From Cyanidioschyzon merolae (lineage: Eukaryota), in the NCBI GenBank assembly GCA_000091205.1, contig AP006500.2: a stretch of DNA of 64,000 nt. The stretch is one strand, 5' to 3'. Position numbers and translations under genes: made by a program. Below are positions 1 through 36,425 of the stretch, one piece after another (position 1 is the first letter of the stretch; every line of letters starts with the position of its first letter). The notes below the pieces were generated by a model, which did not search any database, was not told the origin of the DNA, and saw nothing but the letters and a program-made list of their open reading frames with translations.

Positions 1-4
1 TGCT

Positions 5-997
5 GTGCGTGAGCGGTGCACGCATGCTGATACGCGGGAAGTGCACGGAGGCGATGCCCGCTCGAGGCAGCGCTTGTCGTCTGCTGAGCGCGCTACACGG
101 GTTCATGCTGGGGACTCCGAGGCGAATGTCCGTGATGGAGCCATATATCGGGGAACTTCGAAGCAATGGACACCTGGTTCACCGGCTGGAGCGTCTGGTC
201 GCGTTGTTGAGCGTTTCGAACTTGGCAAGGAGCCCGACAGCGATCATGTGTTGGACACTGAGCCAGAGCACGCACAGTCAAGTGCAGTTGTTGACGCACG
301 TTCCAGAGCGGTGCATGTTATGTCTGTGACGGAATTAGAATCCATGAAAGAAGCTCGGTTTCCTCGTTTGCTTGCACCGAAAATGGAACCAGAGCGATTT
401 CCATATGCGTGGTGCTCCGCAGACGAAGCAGCCATCAGGCAAATGTACGCAGCGGATGAGATCGTGCGCATGCCGCGCTCGTGCCGATACGGAGCCGCTC
501 TGGGGCCGTCATCATCGGTACTGCTGCCGTCGCAGGCACCACGGTCGGCGGTGGGGGTTCAGCGCTCGCGTGCGAGCGGCTGGTGGCAGACCCTCGTCAC
601 CGCATTCCATGCGGGTGTCCGCAACTCCACAACGCACACGAATCGTGATGATGATGATGATGGTGATGACGGTGCTTGTGCATTCGCGGGTCAGGTGGAT
701 GACGGGACGCAGTGTCCACCACCGGCCTCGAAAGCGGGTGAAGCGGGCGCGCCGGCATTACGAGGTCTTTCTGAGACTGATTTTGGCCAAATCAGCTCAG
801 AAGGAGCTCATCCAAATGCAGCGCTCCATGGCTCCATGCTTCTACACAGACCAGGGGCGTACAAAGCGACTTTCCTCAATGAGTCCAGATCCTGTTATCT
901 GCAATCTCGGACGCGAACGTATGAACGCATCCGAGCGCTGCGGAGACAGCTGCAAATGCAGCGTCAGCAGCGAACAGCTGATGCCATCAGCACCTAG
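5..997 (+). CDS. hypothetical protein, 5' partial at window edge (acidic D-rich tract); overlaps alternative-frame ORF 372..1253 so frame choice is uncertain
   Basis: Long ORF from the six-frame track with no recognisable domain; GC-rich genomes give long spurious ORFs. Confidence 0.15.
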   Translation: MRERCTHADTREVHGGDARSRQRLSSAERATRVHAGDSEANVRDGAIYRGTSKQWTPGSPAGASGRVVERFELGKEPDSDHVLDTEPEHAQSSAVVDARSRAVHVMSVTELESMKEARFPRLLAPKMEPERFPYAWCSADEAAIRQMYAADEIVRMPRSCRYGAALGPSSSVLLPSQAPRSAVGVQRSRASGWWQTLVTAFHAGVRNSTTHTNRDDDDDGDDGACAFAGQVDDGTQCPPPASKAGEAGAPALRGLSETDFGQISSEGAHPNAALHGSMLLHRPGAYKATFLNESRSCYLQSRTRTYERIRALRRQLQMQRQQRTADAIST

Positions 998-1910
998 AGC
1001 GTTCGACATCGCTATGTGCGTTGAGATACTTGACCTGGGACTCGCACACATGGGCACGCGTGAGCGACTCCGCGTGTCCCATAGAGATATGTATCCAAGC
1101 CGCCTCGATCCTCGAGAGGATCATCTGGTTTGCGACTCGTGTTCCTTGCCGTTCCCTTTGAGTATATACCCGCTATTCACATGTTATGCTTCGTATGCTG
1201 CGCTACAATGTTTCCCCTTTGGGTGTTCGTGGCTGCATCGATTTTCGCCATAGCGCGCCAGGGCGCAGGTGGGCGCGCGGGCTCGTTCGGAACGTCAACG
1301 AGATGCGTTTCCCAGCTTCGCGTCGCCGACAGCAGCAGTGTCCGAGCGAACGGCGCAGCTGTTACAGCATTAGCTTTGGCGTCAGTTGCTCGCTCAAGTT
1401 CATGTTTTTGAATCACTGAGTCCCCGTATGGGAGCGCCACGGGCGGCTGTCCGCATCCTGAGGACTTGCACGAGGCAACGTGCCTGCCGAGCGTCACCGA
1501 GTCTGCGTCCGTCTGGAGCATACCTAGGGCATCTGTATCCCAGAGATGGGCGTATCTCGTCGGGACCGTCAGCCGCCGGTGGTATCCGAACGATCCACTG
1601 GATGGCAACGCGAGGAGTGCGTCTCGACGACACGCAACGCTTGACGGTAGCTGCACTGCCGCACTCGGTCTCTTTCGTTGTGTGCAGCGCCCCGATTCTA
1701 CTCGGCATTGAGAACATACGCTAATCTAACGATGGCATTAGCTGGCAATGGTCATACCAAACGATGCACCCGTGCGCGGTTTCGTAGAAGCGGCCGCAAG
1801 CGAGCGATTACCGTGATGCGCTCCCGGTTCACATCGAGCGTCACATGCCTGGTAATGCGCCTGGTACCGATGATGCGTATCCGAATCGTTTCAGCGTCGG
1901 GGTCTAGATT

Positions 1911-3501
1911 GGTGTCAGCATAAAATGGAGCAGGTCCACGAATACTGGCTAGCTCTCTAAAAAATGGGCCTCTTCTCCTGGCCGTCAGCGCCAGCCACTG
2001 TGGGATTTTTCCGTGACTGCTTCTTGTTTTATGTTTCTTGTATCTGAAATGAAAAACCGCGGTCTGTCCTTTTACTCTAGATCGGTTGTCACTAGTCGAT
2101 GGATATTGAGGAACACGTCCAAGCGCCGATGTGGCCGATTCAAGCTGTTATCGACGAATATCATAGACACTCGATCGTTGTGAGCTACGCTTCACTCGCC
2201 ATTTTCATGTTATTTATACAGAGCCCCAGTGCGTCCTTCGCGGCGGTGGCGCTTAACTCTTTTCAGATGTTCCTATACGCGCACCAAACATCCGCGGGCT
2301 TCTCCTCCTTCTTCTTCGAGCACCGCCACGTGACACGGGAACGCTTGCTTCGTCCCTAACCACACGAACTTGACGGGTAGCGTGGGGTTCCTTCGATGTC
2401 TCACTCCGTTTCCGCGCCTCAGTGCTGTACCCTAGGATGACGGGCGTCGTCGTCGGCAATCTCCTCGGCGAGTGTGCTGTTCGCAGGACACGAAAGCGTA
2501 GGCTGCCCCATTCGGCTGCGGATTTGTGGAACGCGATATTGACCATGACGAAACAGTGTCTGGAAGGAAACCCGGGCCTGACGAAGCACTCGAGAGATCC
2601 AGTTCCATCTACGCTCCGTTCGTGCAGCGGATTTGTGGAACGCGATACTGACCATGACGAAACAGTGTCTGGAAGGAAACCCGGGCCTGACGAAGCACTC
2701 GAGAGATCCAGTTCCATCTACGCTCCGTTCGTGCAGCGGATTTGTGGAACGCGATATTGACCATGACGAAACAGTGCCTGGAAGGAAACCCAGGCCTGAC
2801 GAAGCACTCGAGAGATCCAGTTCCATCTACGCTCCGTTCGTGCAGCGCGGTGAAGCAGCCTCCGATAGAAGCGATCGCTGCGATAACGCAAGTCCGAGTC
2901 CAAGACACTTCTCCATGCAAACCGAAGACACGCGGGCCTCTACGAGCATACCCCGTGCAGCGTCGCACGCTGTTGTTGGCTCGCGCTCCACCGATAGCGT
3001 CAAAACGGGTAGGAATTGTTGTTCGGTCGATTTCAGCTAATGGAGGCGACAAGGTCAGTGAGCTTACGTTATGAGCTTGTACATACGACGTTCAGGGACA
3101 GCATCGACTTTTTCGTTTCCACGTCAATCCACCAGCGCCAACGCCTGCACCAACGAGTTGCTTTGAACGAGAACGATCGAAAACTTGAGCAGTGTCTGTG
3201 CTGCGAGCCTGCTATACGTCGGGCAAGGACAGGTGCGGCGGCTTGTACGCATGCATCGAATAACGATATCCGTTATTTGAGGAAGCCTTGTCTGAGGGCG
3301 TCGCGAATCGTCTCGACCCCAGTGCCGTCACGAATTCCAGCAACGACGAATTGAACGGGAGACACTGCAACAGAGACCGACCGAGACTCCTACAACTGCG
3401 TATCGGTTCGTATGCTCTTATTGCTGAACTTCAAATGTTGAGGCCGTGCTTCTAAAAAATCTTCGGAAAACTATCGAATGGTTAGAATGGAGCGAGCGGC
3501 T
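1911..3501 (+). repeat. Left inverted-repeat arm (~1.59 kb), containing three copies of the 109-bp tandem unit
   Basis: Reverse complement matches 4442..5814 at high identity, by direct comparison of both ends and the internal ORFs. Confidence 0.85.
2520..2846. repeat. Tandem repeat, 109-bp unit x3 (ggatttgtggaacgcgata..ccgttcgtgcagc), inside the left arm
   Basis: Three consecutive near-identical 109-bp blocks read directly at 2520, 2629 and 2738. The only differences are single-base changes (t/c, c/t, g/a). Confidence 0.9.
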
Positions 3502-6049: not shown

Positions 6050-8782
6050 TCACAAATGCGGATGCTCTGATGCAGCATTGCGACGCTTGTCTCGCGATTG
6101 TTGAGTCGCTTCGGGAACTTGGGTCAACGATACGGGCGCCTCGTACATACTCTGCGCAGCGCCGGTTGGCAGGAGTCCTGCTGACTCCGCTGCGAGCGCA
6201 TCGAGCGACTCTGCCTCTGACGAAGGCTGAAGCGCACCTGACGCTGCTGCGATGAGTTCCTGAAACAACGCATCCAGGCTGTTTTCAGCCAGCATGCGGG
6301 GTCGTAGTTGTTCGACGCGCTCCGAGGACACCAGTCCGGCAGTGAGCAGTGCATCGAAGACAGACATATGTAACGTCGAGTCCACTGGGGCATCGGGCGA
6401 CGTCTGCTCAGGCGAAGAGATCGCAATAAGTGGCTCGCTGGCGTCCTCGTGCTTGTCAGCGGGTGCTGCAGCCACTGGAGCTGTCGTCGTTGCTGATGCC
6501 GTTGTTTCACCGAAAAACAGAGCTAACGAGTCCGCTGCGGGTACCGGATTCGTTGCCACTGGCGCTTGCAGCTCGGTGCTTGTGTCTTGGTGCTTTTCAG
6601 CAGCCTGGTGCTTCGATGCCTCGGTTGACGGTACCAAAGGCAGCGACACATGTAAAAGGTTCGCATTTTCCGGCAGACATGAGGAAAACGTCGCTCCCGC
6701 GGAAGTGCACGCACTCCATGCGCAGAGCAGACAGCCGTTCGTCCATGCACTGGGCACAGCGAATGCTACCGCATCTCGGTTTCTCAGTGCATCTATGGCG
6801 TCTGTGCGAACGTCATCCACTATTGAGGAGGTTCTCAGTGGGGCACACTGCGGATGTGCTGCGGCGGCTTCCGCAGTACCTGCTCGAGGCGTTGGGTCGG
6901 TGTCAATGAGGGTCGTACTCTGCGCTACGCGCGCTTCCATGGTATCCATTACGCTCTCTGGACGAACCGAAATCTTATCGAGCGATTGTGCGCACTCCAC
7001 CGCGTAGCTCAGAACATCTACATCGTCATCTTCGAGGCCAGCGACCAGCAGGCTATTGAGTGCGCGCCAAGCTCGATCCGTGGATGTCCTTCGCGCCGCG
7101 AGCGTTCGAGCAAGACGTAGCAACTCGAGGCGCACTGGTGCAGCCAAGAGCAATCGATGCTGCTGCTGTTGCTGCTGCTGCTGCATCCATCTTCGCAGCA
7201 CCTCGTCGGCGACAGTCCCAATATGATCGATCATCGTGCCTACGATCCAGAGAAAACGACTTTGTGTCGGCGAGTCGGACTCGATCCATGCCGCATTGAG
7301 CACAATCTCTTTTAAGAGATTTTCTGCTTGACTTATGCGTTCCCGAGGCGTCGTCCGTAGCGCTCCCACTGTCATGCGCAGCAGCAGAAGGCCAACAGCA
7401 CCATAGACTGACGGCGATACGACGCTTCGGCTGCGCCAAATGTCGATGAGTTGCGGAATAGCGGCAGCACTGCTTACCGGATGCACTGCTGCCATTAAAG
7501 CCAACGCACGTGCTGCCATAATAGCAAGCTCTTCGCCACGGCACTTCAACAGCGGCACTAGCCGATCCATAATCGTGATGCACAGCGTCTCCTCGAATTC
7601 GACAAGTTTCACCAGGATGCCCAGCTGATGGCGATACACTGCCGGTTCATCAGTGCCGATCGTCGGCACAAACAGGGGCGCGTACCTTGTCAAACACGCT
7701 GGTTCACGCCACGCGAGCACGTGCAGCATTCGCAGGGCCAACACTTTCAGGCCGCTCTCGTGATCCAGCGCGTAGCGAAGCAGCGTTCGCACCACCGTCT
7801 CCGTGACGTCGTTATCGCTGGAGCGCCTCAAATGGTACAGCGTTAGCGCACCGCTCACAGCGACCGCTGCCGACAGGGACTCTACAGCTTTCCTGGCGAG
7901 TCGGTCGACGGCTTGCACAAAGCGGGTAAGCTCTTCACCGCAGAGTGTCTCTGTCATTCGCTCGGGCCGCGTTGTAGTACGCAGTAGGACGTAGCGCAGC
8001 AGCTGATGCAGTGCTATCGGGAGCAGGTTCCCCGGAATCGTCTGGTACTCTTCATCTAGTCGCTCGACCAGCGACACGGGAATGTTGAGCATTGCATCTC
8101 GATCTAGCATGCCCAGTGCTGCAGCAGTTGCAACCAGTACGGGTGCTTCCCGGTCATTTAACAACAACTGCCACAGAGGTGCCGTCAACGCCGAAGCAAT
8201 CTGCTCAACAGGCAGCTGGTGGAGGCTTTGCGCAGGCTCCGCACCGTCGGGCTCGTTCCACGTTAGCACTGGTGGGATACTCAGGGCTGCGGTGAGTCGC
8301 ACTTGCGGATGACGGTCCCGCACACCGCGGTGAATCGCCAACCACATAACCTGGCGTAGAGCGGGAACACGTAGCGAAGTCAGTAGGCGGAGCGCCTGAC
8401 TCCGCACCCAAGGGTCATTGTGCTGCAGGTCCTTAAACAACGCGTTAACCGCCAAGAGGACCAAATGCGGTTCGTCGTCCGCATGCTGCTGCAGGAATAT
8501 GCACACCAGTCGTTTCAGTTCATAGTCTGCTTGCAGCAGATTGCTCACCACGGCGGGTAGCAACTTGGCTACGGGCTGGCCCTGAACGCTGAGCGCTAGC
8601 ACTCTCTTCAGCGCTTCCCTGCGAACCTGTGCGTTGCCCTGTTCAAGCTGGAGTCGTAAAAGTGCCCAGTCTGTGTTCGCATCGTCCAAGTACGAGGCGT
8701 CTGTCCAGTTGCCCGCTAACTGAGACGCCAGCGTTGTCATCGCCGAGGCGGTACAGCCGCGAACTCTCCCCTGGAGCACCAC
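6050..8782 (-). CDS. Adaptin-like AP-complex large subunit with an adaptin N-terminal HEAT/ARM trunk (which AP complex is unresolved)
   Basis: 910-aa ORF. The segment DPWVRSQALRLLTSLRVPALRQV..RGVRDRHPQVRLTAALSI matches the conserved adaptin_N pattern (NPLIRALAlRtm..iRv..i...........D.dPyVRKtAAlcv). A Pro/Ala/Ser/Thr-rich hinge follows the trunk. A polyQ tract sits around nt 7160-7190. Confidence 0.5.
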   Translation of the reverse strand: MVLQGRVRGCTASAMTTLASQLAGNWTDASYLDDANTDWALLRLQLEQGNAQVRREALKRVLALSVQGQPVAKLLPAVVSNLLQADYELKRLVCIFLQQHADDEPHLVLLAVNALFKDLQHNDPWVRSQALRLLTSLRVPALRQVMWLAIHRGVRDRHPQVRLTAALSIPPVLTWNEPDGAEPAQSLHQLPVEQIASALTAPLWQLLLNDREAPVLVATAAALGMLDRDAMLNIPVSLVERLDEEYQTIPGNLLPIALHQLLRYVLLRTTTRPERMTETLCGEELTRFVQAVDRLARKAVESLSAAVAVSGALTLYHLRRSSDNDVTETVVRTLLRYALDHESGLKVLALRMLHVLAWREPACLTRYAPLFVPTIGTDEPAVYRHQLGILVKLVEFEETLCITIMDRLVPLLKCRGEELAIMAARALALMAAVHPVSSAAAIPQLIDIWRSRSVVSPSVYGAVGLLLLRMTVGALRTTPRERISQAENLLKEIVLNAAWIESDSPTQSRFLWIVGTMIDHIGTVADEVLRRWMQQQQQQQQHRLLLAAPVRLELLRLARTLAARRTSTDRAWRALNSLLVAGLEDDDVDVLSYAVECAQSLDKISVRPESVMDTMEARVAQSTTLIDTDPTPRAGTAEAAAAHPQCAPLRTSSIVDDVRTDAIDALRNRDAVAFAVPSAWTNGCLLCAWSACTSAGATFSSCLPENANLLHVSLPLVPSTEASKHQAAEKHQDTSTELQAPVATNPVPAADSLALFFGETTASATTTAPVAAAPADKHEDASEPLIAISSPEQTSPDAPVDSTLHMSVFDALLTAGLVSSERVEQLRPRMLAENSLDALFQELIAAASGALQPSSEAESLDALAAESAGLLPTGAAQSMYEAPVSLTQVPEATQQSRDKRRNAASEHPHL

Positions 8783-23760: not shown

Positions 23761-25038
23761 TCAGTCTTCGATTCGTGCTTTCCGATCCATCCATTCCTCG
23801 AGCTTCTCTCTCGGACTTTGACGATTTTCTAGGACGTCGATGACGCCTAACAGAATCGGAAACTTCAACGCTCGTCTCATGGGGTTCAAGTGCGGAAACT
23901 GCCTTTCAATGAGACTCGCAACTGCCTTTGCCGTCGGCACGCCTTCAGCGACCTGACTCGAAGTCTCTAAAATATGAGCAAGGGTTTCACCCTGACCCAG
24001 GCGGTAGCCAACCGTTCTGTTCCGACTGCTCGTGCCGAAGCAGGTCATAAACGTATCGCCTACGCCACTGAGGCCGGCCACAGTCACCGGACGAGCACCA
24101 AAACTCCGCGCAAGGCGCCGCATCTCCGAGCAGCCGCGAGTCACCAGCGCAGCTGTCGCGTTCATACCGAGACCAAGTCCCTCGCAGATGCCGGCAGCAA
24201 GGGCGATAACGTTCTTCACAGCGCCACAAATTTCAACGCCAACAACGTCGCTCGAGCGAAATACTTTCAGTGCTGGTGAGCTAATAGCGGCTGCAATACT
24301 CGCACATGCAGCAGCGTCATGCGAGGCCAGGACGACGGCTGCCGGAAGATCGGCCAACATCTCATGGGCGAAAGAGGGTCCCGAGAGAAACATGCATGGC
24401 ACCGGACGCTCTTTACCGAATACGTCGTCGAAAATCTCGTACATAAAGTTGCCTGTGCTAACCTCAATACCCTTGCTTGTGGACAGAATCGGTGTTCCGG
24501 GCGCCAAATTCGGGCGAACGCTCTCCACGAGAAAAGCTCTGCTCGCTTGGACCGGCACAGCATGAACACATAACCAGCAGCCTTTCAGAGCATCTTCGGG
24601 GTCCGTGGTCGCTCGAACAAGCTTTGGAAACCGGAAGCCTGGAACTAACGCAGTGTAGCGAGGGTTTGTGCGCTCCTTGTTGATCGTCTCTGCGACCTCC
24701 GCTCGACGAACAAGCAGCACAACCTGGTGACCATTGTTAGCCAAGGCAAACGCCATAGCGCTCCCAAAAGAGCCGCCGCCACAGATCGCTACGTGTCGAG
24801 CTTCCTCTTGGCTCTGCCCAGACAATCGTGCGTGCGTAGGTGGAACCTTCCGCCTCACAGACCGCCGCCCATAACTGGGGTCAGCAGAAGGGCGTCGCCA
24901 CAGCGTCACAGAAAAGGCGGTTTCCGTTCGAGCGGATCCTGCGCCCTCGAAGCCCCTAGCCAATGAGATGGCACAAGTGAACGCACTCGAAACAGACCTC
25001 GTGCTCTGTAGCCGCGGCACAGTTTGCTCAGGCTGCAT
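23761..25038 (-). CDS. NAD-dependent glycerol-3-phosphate dehydrogenase (GPD1/GpsA family) with a ~80-aa N-terminal extension
   Basis: The NAD-binding segment begins VAICGGGSFGSAMAFALANNGHQVVLLVR and continues ...GKERPVPCMFLSGPSFAHEM, ...KNVIALAAGICEGLGLG and ...TCFGTSSRNRTVG (C-terminal domain). The ORF is a single uninterrupted frame. Confidence 0.85.
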   Translation of the reverse strand: MQPEQTVPRLQSTRSVSSAFTCAISLARGFEGAGSARTETAFSVTLWRRPSADPSYGRRSVRRKVPPTHARLSGQSQEEARHVAICGGGSFGSAMAFALANNGHQVVLLVRRAEVAETINKERTNPRYTALVPGFRFPKLVRATTDPEDALKGCWLCVHAVPVQASRAFLVESVRPNLAPGTPILSTSKGIEVSTGNFMYEIFDDVFGKERPVPCMFLSGPSFAHEMLADLPAAVVLASHDAAACASIAAAISSPALKVFRSSDVVGVEICGAVKNVIALAAGICEGLGLGMNATAALVTRGCSEMRRLARSFGARPVTVAGLSGVGDTFMTCFGTSSRNRTVGYRLGQGETLAHILETSSQVAEGVPTAKAVASLIERQFPHLNPMRRALKFPILLGVIDVLENRQSPREKLEEWMDRKARIED

Positions 25039-26581
25039 GAGCTACTATCCTGCATCGGAACGAAGGACGCTCACCCGCGGTAGTGTCGCGCTTCTGATCC
25101 GCGCAGGCGCGTAAGCCGGCAGGAGTCGTTGCTGCATCGAGTTTTTTTCGATGACAGAGCGTTTCCATTGACCATGAATCCCCAATAGCGGGATGGGTAC
25201 TACGATTCATGTAATTCTCCATCATGACGCAACCTATCTCCAAGTTCCATTACCCATATTTCCTCTCAGGTATACTGGTCTTTTCCTTTGTTCTATCGTA
25301 TGCCAAGTGCCTGCAGTGAGCACCCACCGCAGCGCCTAAACCGCTTGTGCGGATGCTACACGGAGACAGAGTAGCTTTGTCATACCACTGAGGGCGTCGG
25401 CTCGAGGAATGCTACACCTGACACGGGATCAGGGCTACTTATCATTCTGGGAGTCTGGAAGCTGCGCAGGCAGGCGTACTGCCTGCGGCAGCGCAGAGCG
25501 ATATTCTTCGAGGACACCACGACCAGCGCGACGCCCAGACGCAGCATACCGCTCTGAGTCCCAGAATAAACTGCATTGCGGACGAGTTGCTCAGATCTCT
25601 CTGCATGACCAGGCTCCGAGAGGTCTATGAAGCACGAGCCTGGGAGAATCGTCCGACTCGCGGGACATTCCGCCCAGAAGGTAAACTTTCGTCAATATGG
25701 AAATCTTTGCTCCCCATGAATTTTTATCATTGACAGGGAAGGCAATTGTTATCTCGCTGCCAGTCAGTAGTGAGTCTCTGCTCTTCGTTCTATAGAGTAC
25801 AGTCGATAGGCGCACCCAGGAGATCTGCCAGGCACGAGGTACGACGTGGATATCGCCATTGAAGAGAAACGCGATCCTGATCATTAGCATGTTGTATACC
25901 GTACAAGGTGTATTTGCGTTGAAGTCGTAGCAACGTTTAGTCTTCAGTTCAGTTGTGTTCCAACCCCAAAGCAAGTATATACGAGCGATTTTTCGTGGTT
26001 TATAGCAGAAGCGTTCAAAGTGTGTTCTTTTTCGAAAATAAAAAAGGAAAGTTCTGGACGAAGAAGTGGAGGATCCTGGAGGCACGGTGTCGCCAGGTGG
26101 CGAAAAGAACGAAAAATAGTGCCGAGCAAAGATGAACAGGAGAAGAAGAAGAAGAAGCGAGAGCCAGACCTCAACGGCTGCAAGAAAGGCGACAGCATGA
26201 CGAGATGATAGTGAACGCCTGCCTTCTTGGATGTATCAAGGATCCGTACGAGCAGAAGATGCGAGAGACCACCAGAAGCCGTGTCGATTCCTACTCCAGG
26301 AGCGTGCGTAACACTTCTTTTTGGACTGAAGCATACGGTGAAGGAGATATACGATGACCTTACCGACACGAAAACAGTCGAGGTTCCGGAAGCGTTTTTT
26401 TTAACAAGACCCTCAGCCGCCACTTGATGCTTGGCACAGGGGGACGTCGAGGGAAAATGAGCGCATGTGCGTCCTCCATGAAAAATACCCCTACTAGGGT
26501 CTCAAAGGTACTCGTTACAGGGGTGACTCGCGTATTTTCGAATACAGGGCAAAAAAGTATCTCACGAACCTGAACAACCAT

Positions 26582-28095
26582 ATGATCATGAAGCTCGAAC
26601 GTTTCATGACACGCTCCATCGTTGCGCGCTACCCGGGCCTCTCTCGCAAAGGGATACGGGCCATCATCAATGGCGTCAGGAACGATAGTAAGAATGAACA
26701 GGAGATCGAATTCCTCGACGAGAAGACATCACACAGGAGAACGAATGAAGCTTCTGCAATCCGTACGGCAATTCAAGAGCACCGTCCGGTCTCGGAGCTG
26801 GTCAATCCAGCAGGAAATGTATCAGGTATGGAAAAAGAAAAGCAAAGATGTTATCCCCTAATCCTGCGCTATTTCGTGTGTTTGGACCGCGAACTCGATC
26901 CCAAGGCCAATATGGAGCTGGGTGTGGAACAAAATGTAGAGTCAGAGAAACGGAAGGGTATCCTAACGGGTAAGCGCTTTAGCGTTGTTGCGTTATGCAT
27001 CACCAAGTTCCATTTTGTAACAATCGACTCCAGAGTCCTCAACGGCATCATGAAGGAGGTCTGTCTGGAGTTCGATGTAAGGAAGATAGAGTTCACCAGT
27101 GAAAACCGGGAGACGTACTGGAAGAATATCTTCAATTTCAAACGTCTCAATACGTGCAAGCAAAAGGTATTCACTGGCATCATCGAAACCGATGGAGTAG
27201 CCATGTGTGTACACTCTCGGCGCTTGAAGGCAGATCGTCCAGTTCCGTCCTCGACTGCGCCCGTGGCGAAGCATGAAGAAAACAAGGAGGCTGGCCTTAC
27301 AACGCAGGAGGTACAGGAGAACGATTTTGTTGTTGGCACGGACCCTGGGAACACGAATATCGTAACCATCGCAGTACCCAAGCGTGCGGAAGATGATATC
27401 GACGGCAACTTACGTCAGAAGGACATCCGTCTTTGAAAGCTCACGACAGCTACATCTTACCGAGAATCAGGAAAACTGAATGCAAGGAAAAGAAATGAGA
27501 CGTGGAATGCAGGAGTGAAAGAGCACAAGGCAGCGATCAGCCAGGTGACGAGCCGAGGAGCGGACTTTGAAGCTTTTCGAGAGTTCATGAAAGTCCGCGC
27601 TGCTCTTGACGAGCCGCTGTCGAAAGAATCTACAAAGCCCCGGTGGGCTCGTCTGCTTAGAATCTTGTACTTTGGGAAGCAGCACGCATTTGCCAACTTC
27701 TTCAATGAGTTGAGCGCTCTCAAAGAGGACAAAATTCAGAGACTCGTGGTGGTATACGGAGCAGGGCATTGGATGACACGGAAAGGTAGCACACCAGCTC
27801 CATCGACACGAGCGTATAAGGAGTGCACACTGTGCTTCGTCATGATGTCGATAGATGGGTTCCGAACGTCGTATACATCCACCATGAGCTAGGGTGTGTA
27901 CTTGAGAGTGTCGAGATGGAAAAGTGCCAGCAGAGCACTGAGGATGTAGCAAACTACGGAGCGCTGACAGAGCACCTAACGGCATGGAGGGTGCGAGTTC
28001 GAGGTCTACTTCCGTTGGTGAGTACAACCAATGCCAAGAAACATATGAAATTCGTGAACCGAGACTTCAATGCCGCCAACAGTATAAGCAGATAG
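26582..28095 (+). pseudogene. TnpB/Fanzor-like nuclease ORF, copy A. It is disrupted by an in-frame TGA at 27434, a frameshift near 27865 and a TAG at 28094.
   Basis: ORFs 26582..27436 and 27515..27892 are in the same frame, separated by one TGA. ORF 27823..28095 continues in a different frame. Copy B reads through all of these positions. Confidence 0.55.
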
Positions 28096-28410
28096 GCGGT
28101 GCTGGAGAAGAGGCCCCCAGAGTTGACCAGAGCCAACTTTCTGGGGCAACCTCTGCAGATGGCGCTGTACGAGAAGAAGCTGAAGCCAGTAGTAAATGGC
28201 CGGTCCAAAAACCCTGGGAGAATTCTGCACGCTGGCGTATATACATCAACGCTATCGGCTTGATGTGTGTGCGTTCGTTTGCTCGTTTTGCTGGCGGGAT
28301 TGATGGCGTCGATCCCGAGTCCAGATGGAGAGCTGGCGGGAATGCTGCTGCGCTCTTTTCGCTGCAGTGCGTTGCGAGGCATTCTGTAACGAGAGGCAGG
28401 TTTCCAGGGG
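28096..28410 (+). ncRNA. Candidate omegaRNA scaffold region of Fanzor-like copy A (conserved 3' tail shared with copies B and C)
   Basis: ~300 nt downstream of the RuvC-III motif align by eye between A (28096-28410), C (36140-36425) and the reverse complement of B (34262-34370), e.g. ccagagttg..gagccaacttt..ggggcaacctct..tacgagaagaag.tgaa.ccagtagt. In TnpB/Fanzor systems the guide-RNA scaffold occupies exactly this position. Confidence 0.25.
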
Positions 28411-34261: not shown

Positions 34262-35330
34262 GGTCGTCTATTGCAGAGCACGACTTGCATCGATTCTGGA
34301 ATACCGCCACCAAACGCCGTTCGAAAGTCGAACGACGCCAACGGTGTACAGTAGTGGCGAGTGACCCGCCCTAGACAAGACGTCTCCAAGTGACGTGCAG
34401 ACGCCATCCGATCTTTCTCGACCGGCCACCTACGACTACTGCTCCCAACTTCTTCTCATATAGTTCGACTTTTGGAGGTTGTTCCACAAAGTTCTCCCGT
34501 GTCAACTCTGGAGGTCTCGTCTCTATCACCGCACATCTCCTTATATTGGTAGCGGCATTAAGGTCTCGGTTCACAAACTCCATACGTTTCTTGCAATCAT
34601 TGGTTGTACGTACTCATGCGAGTAGCCCTCGAAGTCTCGCTCTCCTTTCCATTTGCTCCTCCGTCAGCGGTCCATACTTTTTTATATCTTCAGGGCTCCG
34701 CTGACACTTTTCCATCTCCACTGTCTGAAGTGTACACCCCTGTTCATGGTGTGTATACGAGGTTCGGAACTCATCTACAGGTATCGTAACGAAACGCCGT
34801 GCGCCCTCCTTGTACGTTCTTGTCGTTGGAGCTGGCGTAGTCCCTTTTTGGGTCTTCCATCGCCTTGCTCCGTACGCTACGACGAGCCTCTGATTTCCAT
34901 CCTCCTTCAGGTCACTCAACTGATTGAAAAAATTCGCGAACGCCCGCTGCTCCCCACAATACAAATTCATTCGCAAACGAGCCCGCCGGGGCTTGGTATA
35001 CTCCTCCCACAGCGCATCCCAATGGGCAACGCGAACTTTCATGAATTTCCGAAAAGCTGCAAAGTCCGCGCCTCGTCTAGTCACCTCGCTCAAAGCTTCC
35101 AGGTGCTCTTTCATTCCTGAGTTCCAAGTCTCGATTTTCTTCCTCGCATTCATTATACCGGATTCTCGATAGTATCTTGCTCTCGAGAGCCTCAAAAGAC
35201 GCATGTCTTTCTGACGTAAGTTACCATCAGTCCCATCTTCCGCACACTTTGGTACAGAGATGGTTATGATGCTCGTATTCCCAGGGTCCGCGCCAACGAC
35301 AAAGTCGTTATCCTGCACCTCCTGCATCGC
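34262..35330 (-). pseudogene. TnpB/Fanzor-like nuclease, copy B. It lacks the ~230-aa N-terminal region and has one in-frame TGA at 34614-16; the RuvC-I..RuvC-III region plus the 3' conserved tail are otherwise contiguous.
   Basis: ORFs 34614..35327(-) and 34371..34583(-) are in the same frame. Motifs present: FVVGADPGNTSIIT ... FRTSYTHHEQGC ... FVNRDLNAATNIRRC. Confidence 0.55.
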
Positions 35331-35399
35331 AGGATCCGCATCATTCTCATCTACATCCTTCGCCAGGGGCGAAGCCGAGGACGGACCAGGAAGCGGGCC

Positions 35400-36425
35400 C
35401 GACGGCGCTGGAGGTGCAGAAGAACGCGTTTGTCGTTGGCGTGGATCCCGGGAACACCCACATCGTTACCATCGCAGCACCCAAGCGTGAGGAAGATGGC
35501 TCTGTCGGCAACTTACGTCAGAAAGACATAAGTCTGTTGAAGCTCTCATGAGCGAGATATTACCAAGAATCCGGTATAATGAATGCGACGGAGAAAAGTG
35601 AGACATCGAACTCAAGAGTGAAGGGAATTTGGAAGCGATCAGCCGGGTGACGAGCCGCGGAGCCGACATTGAAGCGTTTCGAGAGGTTATGAGCATTCAC
35701 GCAGCTGATGACGAGAGCTTTTGGAAAGAATGCACAAAGTTCAGGTGGGCTCGTCTGCGTATGAACCTGTACTGTAGGAAGCAGCGAGCATACGCCAGCT
35801 TTTTCAATCAATTGAGCGCCCTCAAGGAGGACATGAGCCAAAGGCTCGGAGTAGCATACGGGGCAGGGCGCTGGATGACCCAAAAAGGGTGTACACCAGC
35901 TCCAACGACAAGAACGTACAAGGAGTGCGCACATCGTTATGTCGAAATACCTTTAGATGAGTTTCGAACATCTCATACACACCACGAGCTGTGTTGTACA
36001 CTTCAGAGGGTCGCGATGGAGAAAAGCCAGCGGCTCGCTGACGGAAATGCAAATAGCAAGGAGGGCGAAACTTCGAGGACTACTCGCTTTGGTTCGTAAA
36101 ACTAATGATAGGAAGAAACGAATAGAGTTCCTGGACTGAGACTTTAACGCCGCCATCAGTATAAGGAAATGTGCAGTACTGGAAAGAAGACCCCCGGAGT
36201 TGGCGAGAGCCAACTTTGCGGGGCAACCTCTTAAAATGGAGTGATACGAGAAGAAGTTGAAACCAGTAGTAGGTGGCCAGTTGCTGAACGCCAGCACAGT
36301 CGTCTGCACATCATTGGGTAGACAATCGGTCTACGGCGGACGGTGTGAGAAACGCCACCATTGTACACTGGCTTTCCAGCGTTTCTCTTTTGCAAGGCGT
36401 TTGGTGGTGTTTCCAGAGACGAATT
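35400..36425 (+). pseudogene. TnpB/Fanzor-like nuclease, copy C, head-to-head with copy B. It has several in-frame stops, including CGA>TGA inside the RuvC-III NRD motif (LD*DFNAAISI), and it lacks the N-terminal region.
   Basis: By hand translation: 35423.. [42 protein letters not shown]; the ORF 35629..36099 carries the central region; 36130.. reads D*DFNAAISIRKCAVLERRPPELARANF. Confidence 0.5.

Follow-up and report, generated by a model that had tools for sequence, protein, structure and literature searches.

Three decayed CMe-1A copies in Cyanidioschyzon merolae and the probable relocation of the RuvC-II glutamate in their Fanzor1 progenitor

The window analyzed here, a stretch of 64,000 nt of Cyanidioschyzon merolae 10D DNA, carries three decayed copies of the transposable element CMe-1A. 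Very probably their progenitor encoded a protein with a complete but rearranged D-E-D active site, in which the RuvC-II glutamate is relocated to E603. The copies themselves are pseudogenes. Fanzor1 proteins are eukaryotic relatives of TnpB; guided by an ω-RNA, they cut DNA with a single RuvC active site of the RNase H fold. The initial annotation of this DNA had noted that the segment expected to carry the canonical TnpB RuvC-II glutamate reads Tyr-Gly in all three copies, and had left two readings: either the catalytic glutamate has moved, as in the rearranged sites of Fanzor1 proteins, or the ancestor of the whole family was already catalytically dead. The CMe-1A element, its C. merolae host, the CMe-1 Fanzor1 protein and the rearranged site are all already published.

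Bao and Jurka (2013, Mobile DNA 4:12; PMC3627910) described one Fanzor1 family, CMe-1A, in the C. merolae genome. They counted about 150 copies, which match a consensus of about 3 kb (exact length 3169 bp, their Additional file 1) at about 80% identity each. No terminal inverted repeats were found, target-site duplications could not be determined, and some copies still code for intact protein. The copies in the window were aligned to the published consensus DNA (Additional file 2 of PMC3627910) by blastn and by global alignment; the 734-residue CMe-1 protein was also taken from the additional files of that paper, and residue numbers are those of CMe-1 throughout. Searches with blastn and tblastn found exactly three related copies in the window:

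25149 to 28245, + strand: copy A, a near full-length CMe-1A (consensus 1 to ~3090), ~83% identical, pseudogene
34315 to 35391, − strand: copy B, a 5'-truncated CMe-1A (consensus 2093–3169), 88.7% identical
35358 to 36399, + strand: copy C, a 5'-truncated CMe-1A (consensus ~2110–3169), 80.3% identical

Identity to the consensus is 83.0% over 3131 nt for copy A, 88.7% over 1074 nt for copy B and 80.3% over 1029 nt for copy C, so that each copy is about 80% or more identical over most of its aligned length. In copy A, consensus 1–3087 aligns to window 25149–28231 at 82–83%. The copies have their host genome in common with CMe-1A, and protein motifs as well (DPGNT, VVAYGAG, VDEFRTS, NRDFNAA); the published CMe-1 consensus protein contains VVAYGAGRW, VDEFRTSYTHHELGC and NRDFNAAINI. 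Because nucleotide identity and motifs match the published consensus, the three loci are ordinary CMe-1A members, individually degraded and with no family-level difference. Since they are copies of one transposon family, the agreement between A, B and C is neither chance nor the product of three independent events. The neighboring host gene, an intact NAD-dependent glycerol-3-phosphate dehydrogenase (G3PDH) of 425 aa in a single ORF (23761–25038, − strand), stands upstream of copy A, about 110 bp from its left end, and the product of this gene is identical in 425/425 aa to XP_005538677.1 of C. merolae 10D.

All three copies are pseudogenes, and no copy is able to make a Fanzor protein. Copy A lacks about the last 75–90 nt of CMe-1A at its 3' end; its start codon has changed from ATG to CTG at 26054, it has at least nine frameshifting indels, and stops interrupt the consensus frame at 26495, 27434 and 28093. 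It also differs from the consensus by the change E603G. Copy B, in which residues 1 to ~395 are absent, has no frameshifts and a single in-frame stop (TGA, 34616–34614). Copy C lacks the N-terminal part as B does; 26 nt are deleted near 36033, several frameshifts break the frame, and there are four stops, one of which, a change of Arg671 to TGA at 36137–36139, adjoins the RuvC-III Asp. Both B and C have kept the D, E and D codons. The window copies are dead because of stops, frameshifts and truncations.

The 5' segment of copy A (window 25149–25785) corresponds to the 635 bp shared with a short element, TE-N2_CMe. The 5' 635 bp of CMe-1A are 95% identical to TE-N2_CMe, a separate element of about 70 copies (PMC3627910). 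Blastn found no stand-alone copy of a TE-N2_CMe-like segment elsewhere in the window.

The three β4 peptides quoted in the initial annotation exist exactly as written, and none has a Glu at the canonical TnpB RuvC-II place. The interval given for them, 27700–27760, does contain the Tyr and Gly codons of copy A but covers just the first half of its peptide. The codons and peptides of interest are as follows:

27341 to 27343, + strand: copy A, RuvC-I Asp codon GAC of DPGNT (D431 of CMe-1)
27743 to 27775, + strand: copy A, β4 peptide LVVVYGAGHWM, with Tyr at 27755–27757 and Gly at 27758–27760 (Y569/G570 of CMe-1)
27857 to 27859, + strand: copy A, codon of the relocated Glu (E603 of CMe-1), here GGG, Gly in IDGFRTS
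28063 to 28065, + strand: copy A, RuvC-III Asp codon GAC of NRDFNAA (D672 of CMe-1)
34886 to 34854, − strand: copy B, peptide LVVAYGARRWK, with Tyr at 34874–34872 and Gly at 34871–34869
34772 to 34770, − strand: copy B, relocated Glu codon GAG in VDEFRTS
35845 to 35877, + strand: copy C, peptide LGVAYGAGRWM, with Tyr at 35857–35859 and Gly at 35860–35862
35959 to 35961, + strand: copy C, relocated Glu codon GAG in LDEFRTS

The RuvC-I DPGNT and the RuvC-III Asp named in the initial annotation are likewise present in A, B and C, with the Arg of NRD replaced by a stop codon in C. Fanzor1 features of the family thus include the DPG Asp, found as DPGNT in every copy, and a RuvC-III Asp in (N)RD followed by NAA. 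The alternative Glu at the end of β5, which precedes the zinc-finger position by six residues, is present together with a non-acidic canonical β4 place in the consensus and in copies B and C; copy A individually has lost the Glu by a single A-to-G change (GAG to GGG, 27857–27859). Where canonical TnpB has its Glu at the end of β4, about 50 residues before the zinc finger, CMe-1 has Gly570.

Previous work showed that Fanzors have Pro or Gly at the canonical RuvC-II position, and an alternative conserved Glu about 45 residues downstream that lies near the other catalytic residues in models; mutating this alternative Glu in ApmFNuc (E467A) abolishes cleavage (Jiang et al., PMC10530073). In the definition of Yoon et al. 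(PMC10711439), a Fanzor has DPG and an alternative Glu that precedes the zinc finger by six residues; the canonical type they found only in mis-annotated prokaryotic sequences. The suggestion that the catalytic Glu of this family had moved was borne out: the Glu of vDEFRTS (E603), at the end of β5, aligns with E541 of SpuFz1, which is catalytic in the solved structure. Calling the rearrangement Fanzor1-type was too narrow, although the relocation itself was read correctly, because the rearrangement characterizes all Fanzors, and some TnpB clades as well.

A single-sequence phmmer search of the PDB gave no matches. When a profile of 20 homologues was used to search the PDB, PpFz1 (3.7e-14) and SpuFz1 (2e-9) were found, GtFz1 weakly, and only Fanzor1 proteins rose above noise. 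In the profile alignment (chain offset 394), the three acidic residues of the family fall on D383, E541 and D606 of SpuFz1, at an identity of about 14% between SpuFz1 and the CMe-1 clade. According to the two structure papers on the solved SpuFz1, these are its Mg-coordinating catalytic residues.

For a view of the fold, we used an AlphaFold2 model of a close homologue, P0002 (pLDDT 76, pTM 0.71, with most of the RuvC domain at about 70–95). In this model β1 (479–484) ends in Asp, β4 (618–624) ends in Tyr-Gly-Ala, β5 (650–655) is directly followed by Glu, and a helix (724–737) starts at Asp, the overall order being that of the RNase H fold. A Foldseek search with the model gave SpuFz, PpFz and GtFz structures as all of its best seven PDB matches (E 9e-16 to 2.4e-13, probability 1.00, target-normalized TM up to 0.70); the eighth match had E 0.04, and no Fanzor2 or TnpB structure was among the 50 matches listed. 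From the alignments and the predicted fold, the putative active site of CMe-1 is D431/E603/D672, with Y569-G570 at the canonical place and the Glu at the end of β5.

A homology search with a repaired protein yielded 133 relatives, some 55–83% identical and another set 31–41% identical; 20 homologues, with identity down to about 31%, were used for a conservation alignment, and 120 retrieved homologues for column counts. Only 33 of the 563 well-occupied columns in the 20-homologue alignment are invariant, and the DPG Asp, the vDEFRTS Glu and the NRD Asp are among them. Among the 120 homologues, the RuvC-I Asp was present in 104/112 rows, followed by P in 105/112 and G in 106/112; the relocated Glu was present in 82/85 rows and the RuvC-III Asp in 72/76. 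In the canonical RuvC-II column 90 rows are occupied, 81 of them by Gly and only two by Glu; the Y-G pair is a trait of the CMe-1 family. The check that the initial annotation had named, a search for a conserved Glu at the canonical place, therefore turned up none, and its hand alignment proved to be within one residue of the published one.

In pairwise comparisons between the copies, and with a related environmental copy (L001), dN/dS was 0.22–0.31 at dS values of 0.36–0.91. Therefore most of the divergence between the copies arose while selection acted on the protein, in separate sub-lineages of a family that was active. Judged by these ratios, the divergence is not neutral decay from one dead ancestor. 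Bao and Jurka (PMC3627910) argued likewise, from the persistence of intact ORFs, that the family was not dead.

CMe-1A is a transposable element of about 3.2 kb, without terminal inverted repeats, that codes for the 734-residue Fanzor1 CMe-1. In the mechanism that we propose, the non-acidic Tyr569-Gly570 at the end of β4 replaces the acidic residue of canonical TnpB, as in every Fanzor, and the triad would be completed by E603 (vDEFRTS, end of β5) together with D431 (DPG, end of β1) and D672 (NRD, start of the last helix). By analogy with the established Fanzor1 mechanism, intact CMe-1 would be an active RNA-guided nuclease; it would bind an ω-RNA from the 3' end of the element and cleave the DNA that matches this RNA, by means of two metal ions bound to D431, E603 and D672. 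The metal-binding role suggested for E603 comes from homology to SpuFz1 at about 14% identity. Decay has cost copy A its start codon, brought it many frameshifts and stops and changed E603 to Gly; B and C have lost the whole N-terminal half and carry stops. Our literature search found no report of RNA-guided, TAM-dependent DNA cleavage by CMe-1. The ORF stop lies 59 nt before the end of the CMe-1A consensus; for the final 238 nt of copy B the fold has a z of only −2.3, which is weak, and neither C nor the consensus shares its terminal hairpin.

The second reading of the initial annotation was that the family came from a catalytically dead progenitor, CMe-1 being a nuclease-dead RNA-guided DNA binder, like TldR, or a structural transposon protein. 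This we consider improbable. The canonical Glu and the zinc ribbon cysteines are indeed absent, and one Fanzor1, CrFNuc-1, showed no cleavage in vitro (PMC10530073). The absence of the canonical Glu, however, is the norm among DNA-cleaving Fanzors, and the alternative Glu stands at the position that active Fanzors use. This Glu and both Asp residues are invariant down to about 31% identity, are all in the published consensus, and align to catalytic D383/E541/D606 of SpuFz1, so that no family-wide loss of the triad of the TldR kind was seen in the 20-homologue alignment. The copies diverged under purifying selection; selection on the protein is by itself no proof of catalysis, and it is the conserved triad that argues for catalysis.

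It is more improbable still that the hand alignment was shifted and that a conserved Glu or Asp really stands at the canonical RuvC-II position. Acidic residues do occur just upstream of the strand (KEDESQR in CMe-1), and in this segment the HMMER alignment to SpuFz1 could be off by one to two residues. These upstream residues, however, are at the N-terminal end of β4, away from the active-site edge, and are unconserved in distant homologues. From two positions before the Gly to two after it, the columns read A/G, Y/F, G, A/S and G/A; no more than 2 of 90 rows have Glu, and the strand predicted in the P0002 model (618–624) ends in Y-G-A. Further, the published Fanzor/TnpB alignment sets the Glu of TnpB VVVEDLQ opposite Gly570 of CMe-1 VAYGAGR, and E603 opposite a Pro of TnpB VPPQYTS. 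An hhalign comparison of the family with three canonical TnpBs agrees with the published alignment in the register of β5 (probability 24%, E 8e-4); it spans β5, TNB and RuvC-III only, and the equivalence of β4 rests on the published alignment and the predicted strand. That the Y-G motif is a decay product of three pseudogenes and no family feature is the least probable of all, for though the copies are heavily mutated (11–20% from the consensus), Y-G is also in the published consensus, in intact close homologues and in homologues at 31–41% identity.

The relocated-Glu reading being preferred, a second peculiarity of the protein concerns the zinc ribbon. A strictly conserved C4 zinc finger (OrfB_Zn_ribbon/TNB) was part of the 2013 definition of Fanzors (PMC3627910). 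The CMe-1 clade, which reaches down to about 31% identity and takes in Cyanidioschyzon, Volvox-like and many environmental sequences, has no such C4 finger between RuvC-II and RuvC-III, and among homologues P0001–P0120 no CxxC...CxxC ribbon follows the relocated Glu. In the window the region concerned is as follows:

34758 to 34778, − strand: copy B, region of the absent zinc ribbon
35953 to 35973, + strand: copy C, the same region
27851 to 27892, + strand: copy A, the same region

At the columns that match C548/C551 of SpuFz1, CMe-1 has His/Leu and distant members have Tyr/Asp; Cys occurs in no more than 1 of 85 rows. The columns of the second ribbon pair hold Leu and Thr/Ser in the CMe-1 clade. 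The Cyanidioschyzon subfamily has H-H-x3-C-x9-C (THHELGCTLQRVEMEKC) at this place. In Pfam scans of the repaired protein and five homologues, PF07282 scored 13–15 bits, below the cut-off of 26.3, and the TNB domain is therefore atypical. Because CMe-1 was counted as a member by the definers of the group, and the fold search points the same way, the zinc finger is treated here as typical of Fanzor1 but not universal. A tentative possibility is that CMe-1 clade Fanzors kept the D/alternative-E/D site while losing the four TNB cysteines, with a TNB domain that would be zinc-independent if the proteins are active; the H-H-x3-C-x9-C of Cyanidioschyzon might be a replacement site. A non-exhaustive literature search found no description of zinc-finger loss in Fanzor1.

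The arrangement of copies B and C deserves separate description. B (−) and C (+) abut head to head at window 35358–35391, and both are 5'-truncated within about 45 nt of each other, at consensus 2093 and ~2110–2137. At the junction there is a palindrome, CTTCGCC-AGG-GGCGAAG (window ~35359–35375, consensus ~2111–2127). A recent in-situ inverted duplication was considered and rejected: B and C are 74.9% identical, no closer than A-B or A-C, and a dS of 0.91 with an ω of 0.22 and the unequal distances from the consensus (11% for B, 20% for C) also speak against it. Environmental relatives of CMe-1 have two to four tandem repeats of a unit of about 25 residues (..ATQEVQDNDLVVDA..K.E..KEA..) immediately before the DPG strand. 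That these repeats are at the same place in the gene as the B/C breaks suggests a rearrangement-prone segment. At the other end, about 10 bases (TTTGGTGG) past the published 3169-bp 3' end are common to B, C and L001, and CMe-1A probably extends slightly past its published 3' terminus. These features are located as follows:

L001 (JGI 3300005573 contig), 6441 to 6660: tandem repeats, also found in proteins P0002 and P0005
34303 to 34315: copy B, extra 3' bases
36399 to 36411: copy C, extra 3' bases
L001, ~7650 to 7660: extra 3' bases

The relocated RuvC-II Glu has been in the literature since 2023 as a hallmark common to all Fanzors, backed by mutations and structures. The significance of the present analysis lies mainly in correct annotation: the three loci are non-functional relics, and the raw sequence was read correctly, with nothing added to the literature. 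A glycine at the canonical RuvC-II position of Fanzor-type genes is not to be taken as the sign of a dead nuclease; the diagnostic residue in such genes is the Glu of the (D)E(F/Y)(R/K)TS motif.

Among known systems, SpuFz1 (PDB 8GKH, 9CEU–9CEZ), PpFz1 and GtFz1 are the best structural matches of the CMe-1 clade (Foldseek E ~1e-15). SpuFz1 and CMe-1 are alike in having a non-acidic canonical β4 place and a Glu within the (D)E(F/Y)(R/K)TS motif. They differ in the zinc ligands, which are CPRC...C-x5-C in SpuFz1, whereas CMe-1 has H610/L613 and L/T there; in the ends of the elements, with 30-nt inverted repeats for SpuFz1 and none reported for CMe-1A; and in the RuvC-I motif, DPN in SpuFz1 and DPG in CMe-1. 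Individual copies in the window depart further from the CMe-1A consensus, A by its missing 3' end and E603G, and B and C by their truncation and head-to-head joining.

Canonical TnpBs (IS605 OrfB, ISDra2 TnpB), Cas12f and CMe-1 share the order RuvC-I Asp, β4, β5-TS motif, TNB and RuvC-III RD helix. In canonical TnpB the Glu is at the end of β4 (VVVEDL), whereas CMe-1 has Gly there and its Glu opposite the Pro of TnpB VPPQYTS. The TnpB2 or pro-Fanzor TnpBs (for example TvTnpB, and the cyanobacterial IS607 TnpBs with DPG and the alternative Glu) have a rearranged RuvC-II as CMe-1 does, and the pro-Fanzor TnpBs also have the DPG motif in common with it; unlike CMe-1, these are compact prokaryotic proteins that are paired with a TnpA and have kept the zinc finger. 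The nuclease-dead TnpB-like repressors, TldRs, resemble CMe-1 in that a residue is missing at a canonical catalytic position. In TldRs the triad has been lost altogether, whereas CMe-1 keeps what appears to be a full alternative triad.
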